Shown here one piece after another: positions 8,468 to 61,610 of a stretch of 64,000 bases of DNA. The position numbers and the translations under genes are program-made. The stretch is from assembly GCF_053078305.1 (NCBI RefSeq), contig NZ_CP166879.1; one strand, written 5' to 3'. How positions within the stretch are numbered: position 1 is the stretch's first letter; every line of letters begins with the position of its first letter. The notes under the pieces are model-generated. The model saw only the letters and a list, made by a program, of their open reading frames with translations. It did not search any database and was not told where the DNA came from.

Positions 8468-8978
8468 TGCTGACAGGCAGTATATTGAGGTAAAGGATTT
8501 AACTCCCTCCAGCCGACAATTTTTTATGACCACAATACGACAGGTTGTGGTCATAAAATTATTTGGCGCTCGCTGTTCTATAAACTCGCATTTTATATTC
8601 CTCAAAGTAAACCGCAATAATCCCGTGTCATCACAAATTATTTAATATGTTATATTTTATGGTACGCTTTAAAAAGCGTAATCATACCCTTACTTGTAAA
8701 TCACCGGCGCTTCTTACAGTTGTAAGAATAACATCACAAATGTCGCGACTCTCTCTGATTACCACGAACCAATATTTATCATATTCTTCTTTTCGTCCTC
8801 ACTACTTACCATGCAGAAAGGAATTGGAAGTAGCGATGAAATGATTTTCAGTACTTGATACAGGAATGTAAAAATATCGAGTGCCGCTACGACGATATTT
8901 TGCGGATTATTTATAGAGGCGTTACGCCTTAAATAAACGCTAAATTAACACATATTTAATTAACTAATAGGTATTGCT

Positions 8979-10229
8979 ATGTCAACTCCACTTCAAGGAA
9001 TTAAAGTTCTCGATTTCACCGGTGTGCAATCTGGCCCATCTTGTACTCAAATGCTGGCCTGGTTTGGCGCTGACGTCATTAAAATTGAACGCCCCGGCGT
9101 TGGTGACGTAACGCGTCACCAGCTGCGAGATATTCCTGATATCGATGCGCTTTACTTCACCATGCTTAACAGTAACAAACGTTCTATTGAGTTAAATACC
9201 AAAACAGCGGAAGGCAAAGAGGTAATGGAAAAGCTGATCCGCGAAGCTGATATCTTAGTCGAGAACTTTCATCCAGGGGCCATTGATCACATGGGTTTCA
9301 CCTGGGAGCATATTCAAGAAATCAATCCACGTCTGATTTTTGGTTCGATCAAAGGGTTTGATGAGTGTTCGCCTTATGTGAATGTAAAAGCCTATGAAAA
9401 CGTTGCTCAGGCAGCGGGTGGCGCGGCATCCACTACGGGTTTTTGGGACGGTCCGCCGCTGGTAAGCGCTGCAGCGTTGGGTGACAGCAACACCGGAATG
9501 CATTTACTGATCGGTTTACTTGCTGCTTTGCTGCATCGCGAAAAAACGGGGCGTGGGCAACGAGTCACCATGTCAATGCAGGATGCCGTATTGAACCTTT
9601 GCCGCGTGAAATTACGCGACCAGCAGCGTCTCGATAAATTGGGTTATCTGGAAGAATACCCGCAGTATCCGAATGGCACATTTGGTGATGCAGTTCCCCG
9701 CGGAGGTAATGCGGGTGGTGGCGGTCAGCCTGGCTGGATCCTGAAATGTAAAGGTTGGGAAACCGATCCTAACGCCTATATTTATTTCACTATTCAGGAG
9801 CAAAACTGGGAAAACACCTGTAAAGCCATCGGCAAACCAGATTGGATTACCGATCCGGCATACAGTACAGCCCATGCCCGACAGCCACATATTTTCGATA
9901 TTTTTGCTGAAATCGAAAAATACACTGTCACTATTGATAAACATGAAGCGGTGGCCTATTTGACTCAATTTGATATTCCTTGTGCACCGGTTTTAAGTAT
10001 GAAAGAAATTTCACTTGATCCCTCTTTACGCCAAAGTGGCAGTGTTGTCGAAGTGGAACAACCGTTGCGTGGAAAATATCTGACAGTTGGTTGTCCAATG
10101 AAATTCTCTGCCTTTACGCCAGATATTAAAGCTGCGCCGCTATTAGGTGAACATACCGCTGCTGTATTGCAGGAGCTGGGTTATAGCGACGATGAAATTG
10201 CTGCAATGAAGCAAAACCACGCCATCTGA
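8979..10229 (+). CDS. frc: Formyl-CoA:oxalate CoA-transferase
   Basis: 416-aa ORF, CoA-transferase family III; K-12 synteny. Confidence 0.9.
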
Positions 10230-30495: not shown

Positions 30496-31176
30496 TCATC
30501 GCCATTGCTCCCCAAATACAAAACCAATTTCAGCCAGTGCCTCGTCCATTTTTTCGATGAACTCCGGCACCATCTCGTCAAAACTCGCCATGTAATTTTC
30601 ATCCCGCTCAACCACGACATAATGCAGGCCTTCACGCTTCATGCGTGGGTCATAGTTGGCAAAGTACCAGGCATCTTTTCGCGTCACCCACATGCTGTAC
30701 TGCACCTGGGCCATGTAAGCCGACTTTATGGCCTCGAAACCACCGAGCCGGAACTTCATGAAATCCCGGGAGGTAAACGGGCATTTCAGCTCAAGACCAT
30801 TGCCGTCACTGCATAAACCATCGGGAGAGCAGGCGGTGCGCATACTTTCGTCGCGATAGATGATCGGGGATTCAGTAACATTCACGCCGGAAGTGAATTC
30901 AAACAGGGTTCTGGCGTCGTTCTCGTACTGTTTTCCCCAGGCCAGCGCCTTAGCATTAACTTCCGGAGCCACACCGGTGCAAACCTCAGCCAGCAGGGTG
31001 TGGAAGTAGGACATTTTCATGTCAGGCCATTTCTTTCCGGAGCGGGGTTTTGCTATCACGTTGTGAACTTCTGAAGCTGTGATGACGCCGAGCCGTAATT
31101 TGTGCCACGCATCATCCCCCTGCTCGACAGCTCTCACGTCGATCCCGGTACGCTGCAGGATAATGTCTGGTGTCAT
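30496..31176 (-). CDS. exo: Lambda exonuclease (Red alpha)
   Basis: 226-aa protein matching lambda Exo along its length ([26 protein letters not shown]...). Confidence 0.9.
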
Positions 31177-31958
31177 GCTGCCACCTTCTGCTCAGTGGCT
31201 TTTTGTTTCAGGAATCCAAGAGCTTTCACTGCTTCGGCCTGTGTCAGTTCTGACGATGCACGAATGTCGCGGCGAAATATCTGGGAACAGAGCGGCAATA
31301 AGTCGTCATCCCATGTTTTATCCAGGGCGATCAGCAGAGTGTTAATCTCCTGCATGGTTTCATCGTTAACCGGAGTGATGTCGCGTTCCGGCTGGCGTTC
31401 TGCAGTGTATGCGGTATTTTCGACAATGCGCTCGGCTTCATCCTTGTCATAGATACCAGCAAATCCGAAGGCCAGGCGGGCACACTGAATCATGGCTTTA
31501 TGCCGTAACATCCGTTTGGGATGCGACTGCCACGGGCCGGTGATTTCTCTGCCTTCGCGGGTTTTGAATGGTTCGCGTCGGCATTCATCCATCCACTCGG
31601 TAACGCAGATCGGATGATTACGGTCTTTGCGGTAAATCCGGCATGTACAGGATTCATTGTCCTGCTCAAAGTCCATGCCATCAAACTGCTGGTTTTCATT
31701 GATGATGCGGGACCAGCCATCAACGCCCACCACCGGAACGATGCCGTTCTGCTTATCAGGGAAGGCGTAAATTTCTTTCGTCCACGGATTAAGGCCGTAC
31801 TGGTTGGCGACGATCAACAATGCGATGAACTGCGCATCGCTGGCATCGCCTTTAAATGCTGTCTGGCGAAGAGTGGTGATCAGTTCCTGTGGGTCGACAG
31901 AATCCATGCCGACACGTTCAGCCAGCTTCCCTGCCAGCGTTGCGAGTGCTGTACTCAT
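31173..31958 (-). CDS. bet: Lambda Bet single-strand annealing protein (Red beta)
   Basis: 261-aa protein matching lambda Bet ([36 protein letters not shown]...). Confidence 0.9.
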
Positions 31959-31963
31959 CCGTT

Positions 31964-32260
31964 TTATACCTCTGAATCAATATCAACCTGGTGGTGAGCA
32001 ATGGTTTCAACCATGTACCGGATGTGTTCTGCCATGCGCTCCTGAAACTCAACATCGTCATCAAACGCACGGGTAATGGCTTTTTTGCTGGCCCCGTGGC
32101 GTTGCAAATGATCGATGCATAGCGATTCAAACAGGTGCTGGGGCAGGCCTTTTTCCATGTCGTCTGCCAGTTCTGCCTCTTTCTCTTCACGGGCGATCTG
32201 CTGGTAGTGACGCGCCCAGCTCTGAGCCTCAAGACGATCCTGAATGTAATAAGCGTTCAT
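31964..32260 (-). CDS. gam: Gam (RecBCD inhibitor), short form
   Basis: 98-aa protein matching lambda GamS ([21 protein letters not shown]...). Confidence 0.85.
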
Positions 32261-32335
32261 GGCTGAACTCCTGAAAATGGCTGTGAAAAAATCGCCCGCG
32301 GAATGCCAGGCTGATTCGGAAAACAGGAAAGGGGA

Positions 32336-32626
32336 TTAGTGATTCAGACCGTTGCCGCGTCCGTCGAGAAAAACTTCCACGAGCAAGTCACGGGTATAAG
32401 TGCGCTCAATGCCGCGATGCAGATAAAGTCGTCCGCGTAAATTAGCTGATGCAGTCCAGGTACCATCTTTGCGTTTGACCAGCATTCCTGGCATGACCGC
32501 ACCGCGATTAACGGTCTGCGTTCCGTAATGTTGATGAACCATAAAAACTCCTGCCCGTAAGCTGGGCTGCTGAACATATAAAGACTTCTGCGCGTATTCA
32601 GGCGGTGGATGGCCGCCGGTTGTCAT
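32336..32626 (-). CDS. Hypothetical early-left protein (kil/cIII region)
   Basis: 96-aa ORF downstream of putative OL/pL; function not assignable. Confidence 0.3.
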   Translation of the reverse strand: MTTGGHPPPEYAQKSLYVQQPSLRAGVFMVHQHYGTQTVNRGAVMPGMLVKRKDGTWTASANLRGRLYLHRGIERTYTRDLLVEVFLDGRGNGLNH

Positions 32627-32825
32627 AACTAAGCCGCCTCGTTGAAGCGACTAAGGTATGAAATGTTGAGTTGATTTCAGCTGGTCACACCGACGTTCAC
32701 GCGTCCGTTTCATCCCTCGCACTCCCCGAAGCCTGCTGAAATTCAAGCTGCGGATCTAAGCGGTCATCGCAACGGTGAATCAGGTGGTTGCCGTATCGTT
32801 GTGTTGTTGCGATATGGTGATAATA

Positions 32826-32863
32826 GCTATTGCTATTGGTAATATCAATACTTATTGCTATTA
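32826..32863. promoter_or_regulatory. Putative OL operator region
   Basis: Motifs GCTATTGCTAT and ATTGCTATTA, each also present between cI and cro. Confidence 0.4.
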
Positions 32864-32986
32864 GTTGATGTGTTTTGATATTAAATGTTTGATAGCAAAA
32901 AGAATTAATTTTGTGACTTGCATCGCATAGCGATAACTGAAGTGAGGTCGTGGTGGTTTTTTGAACGGTGTGTGATGAGGGGAGGG

Positions 32987-33011
32987 CAAAAGAAAACCCG
33001 GCAAGGCCGGG
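32987..33011 (-). terminator. Rho-independent terminator ending the cI-proximal operon
   Basis: cccggc-aag-gccggg hairpin; on minus strand followed by TTTTCTTTT; about 40 bp past the stop of the 33047 gene. Confidence 0.5.
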
Positions 33012-33046
33012 TTGTTGATAAGGTATGTCACATACAATAATAAATT

Positions 33047-33874
33047 TTAGACTTGAGGAAGTATTTTTTTTGCAAAATCAATAGTTTCTTTGTGGCTGGA
33101 TGCAGGTATATGATTTATTTTCTTAGCATCCATAGTTCTCTTTATGATGTCAATAACTTTGCTTTGGCCTGAGTTTGGTGATTCAGGGGTTTCAATTGTG
33201 AATAGAATGTCATCAAGTGAAAGCAGGTTTTCTTCTGCTGCTCGAGTTATTCTCATCACCCAAGTATCACTATGCTCCATCATTTTTCCGGGTTCAGTTT
33301 GAGTGAATGCCAGAGGTTTGATGGCACATTGGATCCTGTCGTGCTTCTTGGCGACCAATGGCATTGAGAACTTTGCGAAATACCCATCAATAGTTGCTTG
33401 TTTGAAGACGTTCTTCAATCCATCTATTCTATCGATACTGCGTTTTAGCTCTCTAGCTAGGACATCTTCACGGCGCTCTTTTGTGTAGTCAGCGTGGTTT
33501 ACATATTTATTGTAAATGCGAGCCAACTCTTCTTTCGGGTTTTCACTGAGGATAACTCTCGTAGAGCTGAACTGAAAAATTGATTCTTTTTTGTTTGTAA
33601 AATATCTGAAGAATTGTGCAAGTTGTTGATGTCCAACAATCTGGGTAGCATGCATTTTTGCGAACTGGAGTTCTCTTTGTATTGAGTCTTTTGCTACGGG
33701 AAAAATGCAATCATCATGGAAGAAATTCTTTACACGAGAGTCATTTCGCTTTGTGAGATGGAAGTCAAAGTAATTTTCTTTTGGCGCGCACAGAAGTACG
33801 CCTATGTTTGCGAACTCTTCAGTCTCCGCATAAGGCGCATAGCGAACGATGCTATATAGGCATGGAGTTGTCAT
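33047..33874 (-). CDS. Hypothetical protein, possibly DUF3037-like; second gene of rexAB-position operon
   Basis: ORF 33047-33889; likely ATG at 33874 overlapping upstream stop (ATGA); N-terminal YSIVRYAPYAETEEFANIGVLLC reminiscent of DUF3037 (from memory, needs HMM). Confidence 0.5.
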   Translation of the reverse strand: MTTPCLYSIVRYAPYAETEEFANIGVLLCAPKENYFDFHLTKRNDSRVKNFFHDDCIFPVAKDSIQRELQFAKMHATQIVGHQQLAQFFRYFTNKKESIFQFSSTRVILSENPKEELARIYNKYVNHADYTKERREDVLARELKRSIDRIDGLKNVFKQATIDGYFAKFSMPLVAKKHDRIQCAIKPLAFTQTEPGKMMEHSDTWVMRITRAAEENLLSLDDILFTIETPESPNSGQSKVIDIIKRTMDAKKINHIPASSHKETIDFAKKILPQV

Positions 33875-34620
33875 TCTATTGCGCTCCAAAATTCATCACA
33901 ATCACCTTTGCCTAGCGTAGTGCAGACAAAAGGTAAAAACTCATCATCTACTATCCACTCCTCTGGAATTTCGTCAAGGATAGCAGGAAGTTTGTGTAAA
34001 CTGTCAACGACCCTCTGGCGGTACTCTACGCGATCCACTAAATCATACTGCCATTTGCGGTTACCCGGGCCGTACACGTGTACAGAAAAATCTTCAGGCC
34101 CAGCATTCTGATCAAATGATAGATTATGGTCAATCAGATAATACTTATCGTTACTGATGTCATAAAGGATATTGACGTTTCCGCCTTTATCAGTAAGCGT
34201 TCTGTCTGCATTTAATATCCACTTATCAAAAGCATAGATTAATTTTTGCTGTTCGACTGGGATGATCATTTCGTTTCTTGACTGCGTAAACGTTAACGCG
34301 ATTGCACCGTCTATGAACAATGAAGCAAAAGCATACCCTGTACAAATTTGTTGCTGCAGATCAGGTGTGTACTCTACAAGTTCCTCTGGTACAAATACGA
34401 TTTTAAAGTCAGGTAAAGGAAGGCCGATATCATTAGCCAGGCACGCCGAAATGAACTCAGCTAAGAGATTTTTCGGGGGCATTGATGGTTTAGATTTCAA
34501 AACATACAACTGCCCATCATCACATTTGCAAAGAAATGGCTGAGTGGAACCTTCATTGATGCGACGTATTACTTCAACGACATTAGGTATTGCACTACTG
34601 CTGCTTGCTTCGCGCTCCAT
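33871..34620 (-). CDS. Hypothetical kinase-like protein (HipA / PI3-4 kinase-like motifs); first gene of rexAB-position operon
   Basis: ORF 33871-34623; motifs ILNADRTLTDKGGNVNIL and YYLIDHNLSFD resemble catalytic and metal-binding loops of HipA-type kinases; tentative. Confidence 0.5.
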   Translation of the reverse strand: MEREASSSSAIPNVVEVIRRINEGSTQPFLCKCDDGQLYVLKSKPSMPPKNLLAEFISACLANDIGLPLPDFKIVFVPEELVEYTPDLQQQICTGYAFASLFIDGAIALTFTQSRNEMIIPVEQQKLIYAFDKWILNADRTLTDKGGNVNILYDISNDKYYLIDHNLSFDQNAGPEDFSVHVYGPGNRKWQYDLVDRVEYRQRVVDSLHKLPAILDEIPEEWIVDDEFLPFVCTTLGKGDCDEFWSAIE

Positions 34621-34758
34621 CACTAACCCTTACGTGATTCAAGTCTTCCACCTCATTACTCCGCATCTCAAAGAGCGGTTCTACACAGCGTGTTTAAAGA
34701 AAAACAACAGGCTTCATTGCTGTAGCTGTTTTTCCGTAATGTCACTTTTGGTCTCGTT

Positions 34759-35451
34759 TTAACCATGCTTCCTGTACGTCTGAGGCATGCTCCCGATGAC
34801 CTTACCGAAGATGAATACACGGTTCATCTCGTCTTTCTCGATTGGGTCCCATGGTGAATAGCTCTTGTTGTCAGAGATAACCAGCAGCTTATCCTTCATC
34901 ATTTGAAGGCGCTTAACATGGGCCGTATCGTCGTAAAGGAACGCATAAATCCCGTCGCCGTCGAAAGATTTGATGGCGATATCGACGAACAGCAAGTCAC
35001 CCGGTTCGATCGTTCCTGACATGCTGTCACCGCGTACGTTAATGATGCGGATATTTTCTGCCTTCCTGCCATCGAACATGTGACGAGCATCGTCAAACGA
35101 GTACTCAACCGAGCGTAGGACTTCTACAAACTCACGGTTGATGACACCCGGCCCAGCACTGACTTCTATATCAAGAACGTCAATCTTGAAGTATTTGGAA
35201 TGGTTGACAGTAGGCTTCCCTGATTGTTGACCGTCATTTCTCATCGGGCCTATGCCTGATGAGAGCCACTCTGTTCGAACACCCAATGCATTAGCTATTT
35301 CAACAATTTTTGTTGAGCCGCGCGCGTTGCCGCTTGTCAGTCTCCAGATTGTGGGTTGAGCTACGCCAGACGCCTTTGCAAGAGCGCCTTGAGACATTCC
35401 AGATTGTTCCATCGCTAGGTTTAAGCGATCAGCAAGAGTTTCTTTTTTCAT
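34759..35451 (-). CDS. CI-type prophage repressor (HTH plus S24 LexA-like peptidase)
   Basis: ORF 34759-35487; N-terminal HTH, C-terminal S24 domain with GDSM; likely leaderless ATG at 35451. Confidence 0.8.
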   Translation of the reverse strand: MKKETLADRLNLAMEQSGMSQGALAKASGVAQPTIWRLTSGNARGSTKIVEIANALGVRTEWLSSGIGPMRNDGQQSGKPTVNHSKYFKIDVLDIEVSAGPGVINREFVEVLRSVEYSFDDARHMFDGRKAENIRIINVRGDSMSGTIEPGDLLFVDIAIKSFDGDGIYAFLYDDTAHVKRLQMMKDKLLVISDNKSYSPWDPIEKDEMNRVFIFGKVIGSMPQTYRKHG

Positions 35452-35497
35452 AAGTTTTAATTTATACGCTTGCGTATTGATGGTCAAAACACGTTTT

Positions 35498-35529
35498 GCT
35501 ATTGCTATGGTTAATACGCATTGCTATTA
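35498..35529. promoter_or_regulatory. Putative OR operator region between cI and cro
   Basis: GCTATTGCTAT and ATTGCTATTA motifs shared with OL. Confidence 0.4.
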
Positions 35530-35558
35530 TTTATTTGTTGTAATACCAATAGGAATTG

Positions 35559-35789
35559 ATGATGACAAATCAAACCATTCAACTCGCAATCAGTATTACA
35601 GGTAGTCAAAAACGACTGGCAGATCTATGCGGTGTAGCCCAGCCCACTGTTTGGCGTTGGCTACACGGTGGCGGAATTGATGCCCGCTATGTAATGAAAA
35701 TTGTCTCAGCCACTGGTGGAAAGATTAAGCCAGCAGATATTCGTCCCGACCTCGCACCATTGTTTAACGCGAGTAATTCTGCCGCCTAA
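35559..35789 (+). CDS. Cro-like HTH regulator (YdaS-like)
   Basis: Small HTH protein divergent from cI. Confidence 0.6.
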   Translation: MMTNQTIQLAISITGSQKRLADLCGVAQPTVWRWLHGGGIDARYVMKIVSATGGKIKPADIRPDLAPLFNASNSAA

Positions 35790-35813: not shown

Positions 35814-36359
35814 ATGATTATGCAACCACTTACATACCAACAGACTAGCGGATTTAGCCCGACTGCGGTGATAAATCGTTCTCAAACAAAACAGGCGCCA
35901 GGCCACGAAAAAATCCGTGATGCCGTCCGCGCCTGGTCGGCTGCAGATAATCAGGATGTTGTTGCCGCACTCATTGTGAATGAGTATCGGGAGCAGGGCG
36001 GCGGCACCATCGATTTCCCTGATGATGTCAGCCGTGCACGCCAGAAGCTGTTCCGCTTCCTCGATAACAAATTCGATTCTGAAAAATACCGAAATAACGT
36101 GCGTGAACTGACCCCGGCAATTCTGGCGGTACTACCGCTGGAATATCGCGGCCACCTGGTTGTGCAGGATAGCTTCATGGCTCGGCTGGCTGAAATGGAA
36201 AAGGAACTCAGTGAGGCAAAACAGGCTGTCATTCTCAACGCACCACGCCACCAGAAACTGAAGGAGATGAGTGAAGGCATTGTGTCGATGTTTCGTGTGG
36301 ACCCGGATCTGGCTGGTCCACTGATGGCGATGGTCACCACCATGCTGGGGGTAATATGA
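35814..36359 (+). CDS. YdaT-like protein (cII position)
   Basis: 181-aa ORF resembling Rac YdaT (EYREQGGG, LTPAILAVLPLEYRGHL). Confidence 0.45.
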   Translation: MIMQPLTYQQTSGFSPTAVINRSQTKQAPGHEKIRDAVRAWSAADNQDVVAALIVNEYREQGGGTIDFPDDVSRARQKLFRFLDNKFDSEKYRNNVRELTPAILAVLPLEYRGHLVVQDSFMARLAEMEKELSEAKQAVILNAPRHQKLKEMSEGIVSMFRVDPDLAGPLMAMVTTMLGVI

Positions 36360-36445
36360 CAGGTTCAGAAATGGCGAAAGCCGGTCTGCGCGAACATAAC
36401 CGACTTTCAGGTGCAAATCGTAACACACTCATTGCGGGAGGAATT

Positions 36446-37375
36446 ATGGCAAACACTGCTGAGATATTCAATTTTCCAGTGCCGGATGTGGCACAAAAGG
36501 AGCCGCGCGTGGCAGATCTCGATGATGGTTATACGCGCATTGCAAATGAGTTGCTGGAAGCTGTAATGCTGGCCGGATTAACACAGCACCAGCTTCTGGT
36601 CTTCCTGGCTGTCATGCGCAAAACATATGGCTTTAATAAAAAACTGGATTGGGTGAGCAACGAGCAACTTTCCGAATTGACCGGGATATTGCCGCACAAG
36701 TGTTCTGCTGCAAAAAGCGTTCTGGTAAAGCGTGGGATTCTTATTCAGAGCGGGCGGAATATCGGCATCAATAATGTGGTCAGTGAATGGTCAACATTAC
36801 CCGAATCAGGTAAGAAAAATAAAGTTTACCTGAAAGAGGTAAATTTACCTGAATTAGGTAAGAAAAGTTTACCCAAATCAGGTAAAGGCACTTACCCGAA
36901 TCAGGTAAACACAAAAGACAAACTAACAAAAGACAATATAAAACCTTTTTCGTCCGAGAATTCTGACGAATCCTCTGACCAGCCAGAAAATGCCCTTCCT
37001 GTGGTGAAACCGGATGCTGCGATTCAGAGCGGCAGCAAGTGGGGGACAGCAGAAGACCTGACCGCCGCAGAGTGGATGTTTGACATGGTGAAGACCATCG
37101 CGCCATCAGCCAGAAAACCGAATTTTGCAGGGTGGGCTAACGATATCCGCCTGATGCGTGAACGTGACGGACGTAACCACCGCGACATGTGCGTGCTGTT
37201 CCGCTGGGCATGCCAGGACAACTTCTGGTCCGGTAACGTGCTAAGTCCGGCCAAACTCCGCGACAAGTGGACCCAACTCGAAATCAACCGTAACAAGCAA
37301 CAGGCAGGCGTGACAGCTAGCAAACCAAAACTCGACCTGACAAACACAGACTGGATTTACGGGGTGGATCTATGA
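36446..37375 (+). CDS. Replication initiator O-like protein
   Basis: ORF 36356-37375; N-terminal domain resembles lambda O (ADLDDGYTRIANELLEA); internal iterons; likely start ATG 36446. Confidence 0.75.
   Translation: MANTAEIFNFPVPDVAQKEPRVADLDDGYTRIANELLEAVMLAGLTQHQLLVFLAVMRKTYGFNKKLDWVSNEQLSELTGILPHKCSAAKSVLVKRGILIQSGRNIGINNVVSEWSTLPESGKKNKVYLKEVNLPELGKKSLPKSGKGTYPNQVNTKDKLTKDNIKPFSSENSDESSDQPENALPVVKPDAAIQSGSKWGTAEDLTAAEWMFDMVKTIAPSARKPNFAGWANDIRLMRERDGRNHRDMCVLFRWACQDNFWSGNVLSPAKLRDKWTQLEINRNKQQAGVTASKPKLDLTNTDWIYGVDL
36797..36912. repeat. Phage replication origin iterons inside the O gene
   Basis: Four to five direct repeats of about 16 bp (tacccgaatcaggtaa and variants). Confidence 0.55.
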
Positions 37376-38073
37376 AAAACATCGCCGCACAGATGATTAA
37401 CTTTGACCGTGAGCAGATGCGTCGGATCGCCAACAACATGCCGGAACAGTACGACGAAAAGCCGCAGGTACAGCAGGTAGCGCAGATCATCAATGGTGTG
37501 TTCAGCCAGTTACTGGCAACTTTCCCGGCGAGCCTGGCTAACCGGGACCAGAACGAACTGAACGAAATCCGCCGCCAGTGGGTTCTGGCTTTCCGGGAAA
37601 ACGGGATCACCACAATGGAACAGGTTAACGCAGGAATGCGCGTAGCCCGTCGGCAGAATCGACCATTCCTGCCATCACCCGGGCAGTTTGTTGCCTGGTG
37701 CCGGGAAGAAGCATCCGTTACTGCCGGGCTGCCAAACGCCAGCGAGCTGGTTGATATGGTTTACGAGTATTGCCGGAAGCGTGGCCTGTATCCGGATGCA
37801 GAGTCTTATCCATGGAAATCAAACGCGCACTACTGGTTGGTTACCAACCTGTATCAGAACATGCGGGCCAATGCGTTGACTGACGCGGAATTACGGCGCA
37901 AGGCTGCCGATGAACTGTCCTGTATGACCGTGCGAATTAACCGTGGTGAGGCTATACCTGAACCAGTAAAACAACTTCCTGTCATGGGCGGTAGACCTCT
38001 AAATCGTGCACAGGCTCTGGCGAAGATCGCAGAAATCAAAGCTAAGTTTGGGCTGAAAGGAGCAAGTGTATGA
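37372..38073 (+). CDS. Replication protein P (helicase loader)
   Basis: 233-aa protein matching lambda P along its length. Confidence 0.9.
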   Translation: MKNIAAQMINFDREQMRRIANNMPEQYDEKPQVQQVAQIINGVFSQLLATFPASLANRDQNELNEIRRQWVLAFRENGITTMEQVNAGMRVARRQNRPFLPSPGQFVAWCREEASVTAGLPNASELVDMVYEYCRKRGLYPDAESYPWKSNAHYWLVTNLYQNMRANALTDAELRRKAADELSCMTVRINRGEAIPEPVKQLPVMGGRPLNRAQALAKIAEIKAKFGLKGASV

Positions 38074-61587: not shown

Positions 61588-61610
61588 GTGTATTGCAATG
61601 TGTATTGCGA
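61588..61610. repeat. Two direct copies of GTGTATTGC(A/G)A at the right end (putative integrase arm sites)
   Basis: Same 11-mer as the three copies at 49980-50032, same orientation. Confidence 0.6.

Follow-up and report, generated by a model that had tools for sequence, protein, structure and literature searches.

In bacteriophage lambda the immunity region runs in the order OL - rexB - rexA - cI - OR - cro, while the operators of phage 434 are 14-bp sites of the type ACAA-N6-TTGT. HK022 and HK639 are, to our knowledge, lambdoid phages without an N gene. In prophage CP-933P of E. coli O157:H7 (the PaaR2/YdaS/YdaT system) the right operator region holds palindromes of 18 bp, four in number and evenly spaced according to the report, with OL1-3 at pL, and 5’ RACE showed the repressor mRNA to be leaderless (PMC8630535).

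Here we describe a region from a 64-kb stretch of DNA (hereafter the window; contig NZ_CP166879.1) that is, with a probability of about 0.9, the lambda-like immunity region of an E. coli prophage, in which two short repeated motifs would be pieces of 18-bp operators, most likely bound by both cI and Cro. What could be read directly is where the sites lie, how they stand to the consensus promoters, how well they are conserved, and how they co-vary with the recognition helix of the two proteins.

Organisation of the immunity region

The genes, predicted promoters and terminator of the region are as follows.

32820 to 32848, minus strand: predicted pL (promoter scan; -35 TTGATA, 17-bp spacer, -10 TATTAT; consensus 10/12)
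32995 to 33013, minus strand: predicted intrinsic terminator of the cI-cargo unit, at the position of lambda t-imm (8-bp stem with 6 G-C pairs, T run)
33047 to 33874, minus strand: cargo gene 2, DUF3037 protein (Pfam PF11236, E 9e-24; PADLOC candidate PDC-M66B)
33871 to 34620, minus strand: cargo gene 1, HipA-like kinase (Pfam PF20613 HipA_2, E 2e-76; PADLOC candidate PDC-M66A)
34759 to 35451, minus strand: cI repressor, 230 aa, starting MKKETL, with the start kept in relatives
35459 to 35487, minus strand: predicted pRM (promoter scan; -35 TTGACC, 17-bp spacer, -10 TAAATT)
35502 to 35530, plus strand: predicted pR (promoter scan; -35 TTGCTA, 17-bp spacer, -10 TATTAT)
35562 to 35789, plus strand: cro, 75 aa, YdaS family (Pfam PF15943, E 1e-14)
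35814 to 36359: YdaT-family, cII-like gene (Pfam PF06254, E 2e-29)

This layout is that of lambda: pL with OL, accessory genes, cI, divergent pRM and pR with three phased operators, and cro. The likeness extends to a cI start that lacks a Shine-Dalgarno sequence and lies at the predicted pRM transcript start, to the S24 self-cleaving C-terminal domain of cI, and to a terminator after the accessory genes, which is kept in relatives with other cargo. The distance between OL and OR is about 2.7 kb here against 2.4 kb in lambda. In contrast to lambda, the N-terminal domain of cI is 434/XRE-like, Cro is YdaS-type, the cII position is taken by a YdaT-type gene, and the cargo is a HipA-like kinase with a DUF3037 protein instead of rexAB.

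The cI protein matches Pfam HTH_3 and Peptidase_S24, and in the PDB the 434 repressor and UmuD. Its N-terminal domain carries a 434-like helix-turn-helix with the recognition helix region GVAQPTIWRL, and Ala99-Gly100, Ser143 and Lys180 are invariant among relatives. Cro, of which the ATG at 35562 is kept in relatives, has the recognition helix region GVAQPTVWRW and matches the N-terminal domain of cI at 40% identity across 48 aa, helix-turn-helix included; the two recognition helices thus share GVAQPT(I/V)WR. We placed the start of cI at the ATG at 35451, since both PGAP and protein alignment favour MKKETL. A TTG at 35487 was rejected as start for this reason, because it lies inside the pRM -35, and because the sequence just upstream of the ATG differs in related Salmonella and Klebsiella phages.

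The divergent cI and cro genes are separated by 110 bp, in which pRM and pR stand back to back. The promoter scan gave 8 promoter-like sites in the region where 6.8 are expected, and is not significant by itself. The stretch containing pRM (35452-35486) is invariant save for one singleton among 30 distinct variants from 86 loci. The -35 of pL, which reads TATCAA on the plus strand at 32843-32848, varies in few of 34 distinct variants from 66 related loci, with one position reaching the 2-variant threshold; downstream of pL, on the minus strand, lies the leftward early operon with kil, gam, bet and exo. The consensus-predicted pR would direct cro, the cII-like gene, O and P, and its assignment rests on consensus matching since part of its -35 sits in a hypervariable spacer. 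Counted from the end of the pRM -10 TAAATT, the cI ATG begins at the 8th base, with 7 nt in between; this spacing, the lack of a Shine-Dalgarno sequence and the invariance of 35452-35486 would fit a probably leaderless cI mRNA made from pRM.

Unlike lambda, the window has no detectable N-like gene, nut or put element. An ORF at 32336-32626 has no Pfam match and is labelled a cell-division inhibitor by PGAP, and a search for nut- or put-type antitermination by pL and pR gave no Rfam match and no element common to both leaders, an HK022-like put repeat included. An N/nut or HK022-like put RNA within the pL leader was likewise rejected, as its fold is no better than that of shuffles (z = -0.15). 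Such antitermination is not a defining feature of the operator system.

Repeated motifs and operator sites

The original prediction had noted that an 11-mer, GCTATTGCTAT, and a 10-mer, ATTGCTATTA, occur together at 32826-32863 and 35498-35529. They do, and only there: across the whole 64-kb window, exact copies of the 11-mer are found at 32826-32836 and 35498-35508, those of the 10-mer at 32854-32863 and 35520-35529, and both are confined to these two clusters. Allowing up to one mismatch, the 11-mer has 7 matches against 1.29 expected (0 of 100 shuffles give 7), and the 10-mer 15 against 5.99, 6 of the 15 being within the OL/OR regions. The two intervals of about 100 bp have 15 8-mers in common, compared to 0.41 for random pairs of window segments, and their alignment reveals a 53-nt direct repeat with 74% identity.

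Could these words simply reflect two alike, A+T-rich sigma-70 promoters, rather than sequence-specific repressor sites? Both regions are 23-30% G+C, pL and pR have the same -10 (TATTAT) and a -35 of the form TTGnTA, and at OR the 11-mer overlaps the pR -35. However, segment pairs matched for low G+C never attain the observed sharing (mean 0.83 common 8-mers, maximum 11; 0 of 20000 reach 15), and several of the sites described below, namely OR3, OL3, OL4 and 35541-35558, have no matching promoter hexamer. Furthermore, where the pR -35 extends into the spacer its positions are hypervariable, yet the 18-mers are invariant, and in phage PhiR5_1 the sites have been replaced along with the recognition helix. 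We give the promoter explanation very little credence.

The words themselves had been put forward as defining the putative operators. While the clusters do mark OL and OR, the conserved unit is an 18-bp site rather than the 10- or 11-mer. At OR, the 11-mer spans the right half of OR2 and the hypervariable spacer between OR2 and OR1 (35505-35511), and the window’s OR variant with the full 11-mer occurs in about 2 of 85 related loci; its identity between OL and OR is therefore partly coincidence. The evidence supports the motifs as fragments of putative 18-bp near-palindromic operators with the consensus tAATACgt·aTTGCTATTA and a half-site core sTATTA. Three such sites, starting at 35462, 35487 and 35512 and spaced 25 bp, overlap pRM and pR at OR, while four, starting at 32821, 32846, 32866 and 32890 with spacings of 25/20/24 bp, overlap pL at OL. 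A site matrix trained on the Salmonella and Klebsiella phages only has all of its top 8 window matches within OL/OR (scores 16.2-24.6). The best match elsewhere scores 13.6, against a mean maximum of 14.7 in simulated 64-kb sequence, and operator-like matches outside the two regions, e.g. at 8965-8982 (13.6), were rejected as lying within this simulated range. The putative operators are listed below.

32821 to 32838: OL1, TAATAGCTATTGCTATTG, overlapping the pL -10 and spacer; includes the 11-mer
32846 to 32863: OL2, CAATACTTATTGCTATTA, overlapping the pL -35 by 3 bp; includes the 10-mer; matrix score 23.4
32866 to 32883: OL3, TGATGTGTTTTGATATTA, with a weak left half, 20 bp from OL2
32890 to 32907: OL4, reverse complement TAATTCTTTTTGCTATCA, 24 bp from OL3; matrix score 19.5
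35462 to 35479: OR3, reverse complement CAATACGCAAGCGTATAA, over the pRM spacer and -10
35487 to 35504: OR2, AAACACGTTTTGCTATTG, abutting the pRM -35 and overlapping the pR -35 by 3 bp; matrix score 20.5
35512 to 35529: OR1, TAATACGCATTGCTATTA, overlapping the pR spacer and -10; includes the 10-mer
35541 to 35558: probable fourth right-hand site, reverse complement CAATTCCTATTGGTATTA, over the cro Shine-Dalgarno, at about +5 to +22 of the predicted pR transcript

As in lambda, OR1 lies over the pR -10, OR2 beside the pRM -35 and OR3 over pRM, and OL2 and OL3 are 20 bp apart in both. The sites differ from those of lambda in length (18 against 17 bp, with the half-site TAATAC/GCTATTA) and in number, with four at OL and a probable fourth at OR, downstream of pR.

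Among the left-hand sites, OL1 is the best match to the symmetric consensus in the window (13/14), scores 20.9 with the independent matrix and is nearly invariant among relatives. It stands 25 bp from OL2, and the 7-bp spacer between them (32839-32845) is variable among relatives. A pseudo-site at 32840-32857 with a score of 17.0 was rejected, as its TAATAT half lies in this variable spacer, where most relatives read TGATAT. OL3 is a weak match here (11.1) with a variable left half; its position is kept in the Salmonella and Klebsiella phages, the Klebsiella version being near-consensus (TGATAGCAATGGCTATTA), and it is better in some E. coli variants (TTGCTATTA). In OL4, 17 of the 18 positions are invariant among relatives, and the site falls within the segment that is swapped in the heteroimmune PhiR5_1.

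On the right, OR1 is the highest-scoring site of the window (24.6; 12/14 positions of the symmetric consensus), and OR3 includes a 14-bp perfect palindrome, ATACGCTTGCGTAT, and differs from its counterparts in the Salmonella and Klebsiella phages only at the outermost base, a C here and a T in those two. OR2 is identical across three host genera. A register centred on the 11-mer (35493-35510) was rejected for it, as 35505-35510 is hypervariable among relatives; 35487-35504 is preferred, as relatives do not vary in it and the Salmonella and Klebsiella phages carry it unchanged.

The site at 35541-35558 scores 21.1, the third in the window, with a matrix of which the training set lacked this class of site. 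It is 29 bp from OR1 and has a counterpart at the same distance in the Klebsiella and Salmonella phages. A fourth right-hand operator is probable, but the sequence could also have been conserved for the sake of the 5’ untranslated region of cro with its ribosome-binding site. A layout of 4 + 4 operators rather than lambda’s 3 + 3, kept in phages of three host genera, is as such a tentative proposal to which we give less than even odds. If true, the repressor would not only block pR but also cover the early transcribed region, and OL and OR could join in a larger looped complex.

Co-variation with the recognition helix

PhiR5_1 is 92.7% identical to the window over 32700-35211, including the HipA cargo and the C-terminal domain of cI, while its cI N-terminal domain and Cro differ in the recognition helix. 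Exactly 32813-32907 and the cI-cro intergenic region have been replaced in this phage, and the two share another motif set, of the AAAAC..GTTGTTT type. Conversely, the Salmonella P22-like phage Salfasec13b and the Klebsiella phage ST11-VIM1phi8.2, whose genomes are otherwise unrelated, encode a cI that is 82-86% identical (tblastn) with the same helix, and in both OR has three sites spaced 25 bp and OL four, at 25/20/24 bp. None of these sites is present in a Klebsiella phage whose recognition helix is different. Operator sequence thus co-varies with the cI/Cro recognition helix across phages, which is the pattern of heteroimmunity. Together with the promoter overlap, this upholds the original prediction of putative OL/pL and OR operators.

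Conservation within the footprints agrees with this. At OR (30 distinct variants, 86 loci), 2 of 72 columns inside the sites are variable against 11 of 38 outside (Fisher p = 1e-4), and at OL (34 distinct variants, 66 loci) 13 of 72 against 12 of 24 (p = 0.006), counts that do not represent independent events since many of these loci are closely akin to one another. Even where the OL flank is a different one, in an O157:H7 prophage, two strong sites at a spacing of 25 bp are present.

If another factor bound these sites, candidates would be the YdaT-type cII-like activator encoded downstream at 35814-36359, or a host nucleoid protein. In CP-933P, YdaT is reported to recognise an inverted repeat and to cross-regulate the promoters of the switch (PMC9986795, PMC8630535). 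The published YdaT site, TTGATTN6AATCAA, is however unlike the operators of the window, of which the sequence follows the recognition helix of cI and Cro, and the Salmonella phage has the same sites yet a different cII-like regulator of 93 aa. Since their positions over pR, pRM and pL are also those of repressor operators, binding by another factor is very unlikely, if the least so of the alternatives considered.

The repeats might also be sequences of recombination or mosaic junctions at module boundaries, without a regulatory role, as cargo variants lose their homology near OL and precisely at the stop codon of cI. These junctions, however, lie outside the site arrays, in flanks that are conserved on both sides, and OR is within a module rather than at a junction. 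The arrays are moreover near-palindromic and phased internally at 25/20/24 bp, which leaves this as the least probable explanation of all.

Relation to known immunity types

Among known immunity types, the half-sites differ from those of CP-933P, and the sites from those of 434 and lambda. The resemblance to CP-933P is nonetheless considerable. In that prophage, too, Cro belongs to the YdaS family and the cII equivalent to the YdaT family (PMC8630535, PMC9986795), and accessory genes stand behind the repressor, between OL and OR (PMC8630535). PaaR2 starts with MQKKE, and the cI of the window with MKKET. The half-site consensus is however GTTTAGTAA in CP-933P and TTGCTATTA in the window, so that the two differ in specificity; PaaR2 is 15 kDa by the mass given in the paper (PMC8630535), whereas the cI of the window has an S24 peptidase domain. 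The YdaT of the window is no more than a distant relative (E 4e-4 to 8bt1), and the probable fourth right-hand site of the window is 29 bp from OR1 against 25 in CP-933P.

Residues 4-63 of the 434 repressor align to the cI N-terminal domain (E about 1e-5) with the recognition helix in the same place and, as with 434 and P22 C2 (1per, 2or1, 1rpe), the operators are near-palindromes in which the outer bases would be the contacted ones and the centre varies. The helix itself reads QPTIWR in the window and QQSIEQ in 434, and because these residues differ, the specificity would be that of an immunity type other than 434. The closest named lambdoid repressors by tblastn are the cI proteins of HK022 and HK639, at 41-45% identity over the full length, which is too low for a shared specificity to be likely.

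Proposed switch and expression in lysogens

Taking lambda, 434 and CP-933P as models, we infer a mechanism that covers protein binding, the order in which the sites fill, looping, the starts of the transcripts, and cargo expression from pRM. Dimers of cI at OR1 and OR2 would block pR, and cI at OR2, beside the pRM -35, would activate pRM, which occupancy of OR3 would turn off. Likewise, cI at OL1 and OL2 would block pL, while OL3, OL4 and the probable operator over the ribosome-binding site of cro probably contribute to repression by cooperativity or looping between the clusters, 2.7 kb apart. Transcription in the lysogen would then be limited to cI, from a probably leaderless mRNA, and the cargo behind it, until RecA-stimulated self-cleavage of cI (Ala99-Gly100, Ser143, Lys180) would relieve repression.

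That lysogens express cI and the genes lying between the two operator regions, as originally proposed, is backed by RNA-seq of lysogens of Perceval, a prophage of the same immunity: cI reads 78 and the two cargo genes read 27 and 578, against a background of about 5-6 for kil, gam, cro and cII (PMC9928086). The background reads of kil and cro also lend indirect support to a putative repression of pL and pR. The cargo gene adjacent to cI is thus below cI, and the distal one about 7 times above it. Since these genes read unlike cI, a single operon driven from pRM is not the whole story for the cargo.

Distribution and cargo

Of 5426 complete E. coli genomes, 722 (~13%) carry this immunity type, among them UPEC 536, AIEC LF82 with its prophage Perceval, and O157:H7 strains, and it has close relatives in Salmonella and Klebsiella phages. 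No description of this DNA specificity was found in the searchable literature, where a search for the operator words returned unrelated primer and oligonucleotide matches only. The design of the switch is ordinary and well understood, and our understanding of how such switches work is unchanged. With the operators, promoters and recognition helix known, superinfection immunity groups become predictable, and virulent or inducible derivatives designable.

The counterpart of cargo gene 2 in PhiR5_1 is annotated as ‘HipD antitoxin’, and a literature search on ‘HipD’ found no papers. The layout of operators and promoters would account for the expression, in lysogens, of the variable cargo slot that lies between OL and cI, a slot that holds candidate defence genes, e.g. 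the HipA-like kinase with DUF3037, or SIR2.

Shared words and operator sites

To draw up the gene layout, we combined the listed ORFs with public annotations for near-identical prophages and with Pfam and PDB searches.

Layout of the immunity region (window coordinates, strand, feature)
30496-31176, minus, exo
31173-31958, minus, bet
31964-32260, minus, gam
32334-32540, minus, kil-like cell-division inhibitor
32813-32910, OL, left motif cluster
33013..32995, minus, predicted intrinsic terminator
33047-33874, minus, DUF3037 gene
33871-34620, minus, HipA-like kinase gene
34759-35451, minus, cI, 434-like helix-turn-helix and S24 peptidase
35452-35561, OR, right motif cluster
35562-35789, plus, cro, YdaS family
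35814-36359, plus, cII-like gene, YdaT family
36356-38073, plus, O and P replication genes

Exact copies of the 11-mer GCTATTGCTAT are confined to 32826 and 35498 in the 64-kb window, and those of the 10-mer ATTGCTATTA to 32854 and 35520; if one mismatch is tolerated, both are more frequent than in any dinucleotide shuffle. The two intervals of about 100 bp have 15 8-mers in common, against 0.4 for random segment pairs and 0.8 for pairs matched for low G+C (0/20000 reach 15), and align as a 53-nt direct repeat of 74% identity. The motif sharing on which the original prediction was built is thus real. Once aligned, the recurring words turn out to be 18-bp near-palindromes.

Putative operator sites (window position, sequence)
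OL1, 32821, TAATAGCTATTGCTATTG
OL2, 32846, CAATACTTATTGCTATTA
OL3, 32866, TGATGTGTTTTGATATTA
OL4, 32890, reverse complement TAATTCTTTTTGCTATCA
OR1, 35512, TAATACGCATTGCTATTA
OR2, 35487, AAACACGTTTTGCTATTG
OR3, 35462, reverse complement CAATACGCAAGCGTATAA
Candidate further right-hand site, 35541, reverse complement CAATTCCTATTGGTATTA

In both OL2 and OR1 the conserved right half is the 10-mer. The 11-mer does not represent a functional unit: at OL it falls within OL1, at OR it takes in the right half of OR2 and a further four bases from the hypervariable spacer, and the OR variant of the window, which has it in full, makes up about 2 of 85 related loci. The consensus from 21 pooled sites of three phages is tAATACgt·aTTGCTATTA; its TAT (positions 14-16) never varies and has a mirror image, ATA, at positions 3-5, which makes sTATTA the half-site core. 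Elsewhere in the window, the 18-mer CAATACACATTGCAATAC is present in two identical copies 11.6 kb apart (49982-49999 and 61590-61607); it scores 12.0 with the operator matrix, a weak match, and probably belongs to a longer repeat that has nothing to do with the immunity region.

Three of the promoters predicted by consensus scan overlap the motif clusters.

Predicted promoters (window coordinates, strand, hexamers and spacer)
32848..32820, minus, pL, TTGATA-17-TATTAT
35487..35459, minus, pRM, TTGACC-17-TAAATT
35502..35530, plus, pR, TTGCTA-17-TATTAT

Taken alone, the scan finds no significant excess in the region (8 promoter-like sites, 6.8 expected), and the assignments are based on position and conservation in relatives. 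The geometry is that of lambda: OR1 covers the -10 and spacer of pR, OR2 contacts both -35 hexamers, OR3 covers the spacer and -10 of pRM, and OL1/OL2 are placed on pL like OR1/OR2 on pR. The probable fourth right-hand site covers the cro ribosome-binding region. The pL leader upstream of kil (32541-32813, minus strand, ~270 nt) hardly varies, and this holds for the heteroimmune phage PhiR5_1 too; in this leader we found no N-like gene, nut box, put-like element or Rfam match, and it is predicted to fold no better than shuffled sequence.

Sites change together with the recognition helix

The cI N-terminal domain aligns to 434 repressor over its helix-turn-helix, and Cro is 40% identical to it over 48 residues, GVAQPT(I/V)WR included. 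Given this identity and common helix, cI and Cro would be expected to read the same sites. PhiR5_1 is 92.7% identical to window 32700-35211, a span in which both the cI C-terminal domain and the HipA/DUF3037 cargo lie. The phage differs from the window in Cro and in the cI N-terminal domain (helix GVSQAAIQKI versus GVAQPTIWRL in the window), and the replacement covers exactly 32813-32907 and the cI-cro intergenic region, with identical flanks on either side; its OL and OR have their own common motif set of AAAAC..GTTGTTT type. The reading of the words as putative OL and OR operators of one immunity type is essentially correct.

Among the footprint relatives (80 IMG/VR loci, named phages and E. 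coli genomes), the operator 18-mers are nearly invariant and variation is concentrated in the 7-bp spacers, most at 35505-35510 and 32863-32867 (Fisher tests inside versus outside sites, p = 1e-4 for OR and p = 0.006 for OL). Salmonella P22-like Salfasec13b and Klebsiella ST11-VIM1phi8.2, with otherwise different backbones, encode cI proteins 82-86% identical (tblastn) with the window's helix sequence, and each has three OR sites at 25-bp intervals, one more site 29 bp past OR1, and an OL of four sites at spacings of 25/20/24 bp. None of these sites was found in a Klebsiella phage with a different helix. With a weight matrix trained on the Salmonella and Klebsiella sites only, the top eight window matches all fall within OL or OR, and the best match outside (13.6) stays within what simulated sequences reach. 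Two strong sites 25 bp apart are retained in an O157:H7 prophage whose OL flank is different and whose cargo is SIR2.

The cI C-terminal (S24) domain (34759-35211) is nearly identical over at least three DNA-binding specificities and three host genera, with the exchange point in the linker near residue 80; this suggests that DNA-binding heads are swapped as modules onto one cleavage and oligomerisation domain.

Expression in lysogens

In published RNA-seq of LF82 with Perceval, a same-immunity prophage whose cI is about 98% identical to that of the window, cI reads 78 and the two cargo genes 27 and 578, with kil, gam, cro and cII at the background level of 5-6 (PMC9928086, supplementary table). 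OL and OR thus mark the limits of the expressed island, as had been predicted for lysogens. The distal cargo gene PERCE_42 reads ~7 times cI and the cI-adjacent PERCE_43 ~3 times below it, higher in other growth conditions (PMC9928086, table S1), which suggests an additional internal, separately regulated promoter in that cargo, analogous to lambda pLIT. In the window, 138 bp separate cI from the kinase gene, and scans predicted no terminator or strong promoter there. In prophages with different cargo, homology ends exactly at the cI stop codon. The cargo genes may plausibly be co-transcribed with cI.

The mRNA of lambda cI is leaderless. On the minus strand the window reads TTGACC-N17-TAAATT-AAAACTT-ATG, the A of the start codon being the eighth base past the -10, with no Shine-Dalgarno sequence upstream and 35452-35486 invariant among relatives; this geometry fits a predicted leaderless cI mRNA. 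The PaaR2 mRNA of CP-933P is leaderless by 5' RACE (PMC8630535).

Relation to known switches

The architecture is lambda's, and the closest characterised case is the PaaR2/YdaS/YdaT switch of CP-933P, with 18-bp palindromes, four reported at OR, and OL1-3 at its pL (PMC8630535). The half-sites (GTTTAGTAA in CP-933P, TTGCTATTA in the window) and specificities differ. We found no mention of the window's operator words in the searchable literature, and by tblastn none of the classical named lambdoid phages has this cI, the nearest being HK639 and HK022 (41-45% identity); the immunity type is common, in 722 of 5426 complete E. coli genomes. The window's immunity region is a new example of a kind of switch that is already well known; its modestly interesting points are an OL with four sites, the probable fourth site on the right and the cargo hotspot bracketed by operators.

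This hotspot is flanked by OL/terminator on one side and the cI stop codon on the other (33047-34620, minus strand). The window's HipA_2 kinase and DUF3037 genes correspond to the PADLOC candidate system PDC-M66A/B, and in PhiR5_1 they bear the annotation HipA/HipD. In other prophages of this immunity the slot holds SIR2 (O157:H7), ASCH with a hypothetical protein (UPEC 536) or a transmembrane protein with a hypothetical one (Perceval); in a Klebsiella relative it holds a ParA-like gene.

Across cI-OR-cro (551 bp), the window and E. coli isolate F467 share 100% identity, with several OL spacer differences (L006 2062-2157 against window 32813-32908; at 32813, 32841 and 32863-32866); either the window does not simply come from that strain, or its OL has recombined on its own. 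In O157:H7 copies (MB9-1, L004 4813-5035, and others), cro is frameshifted and annotated as a YdaS pseudogene, with intact OR sites and SIR2 cargo; such a prophage may be unable to leave the repressed state.
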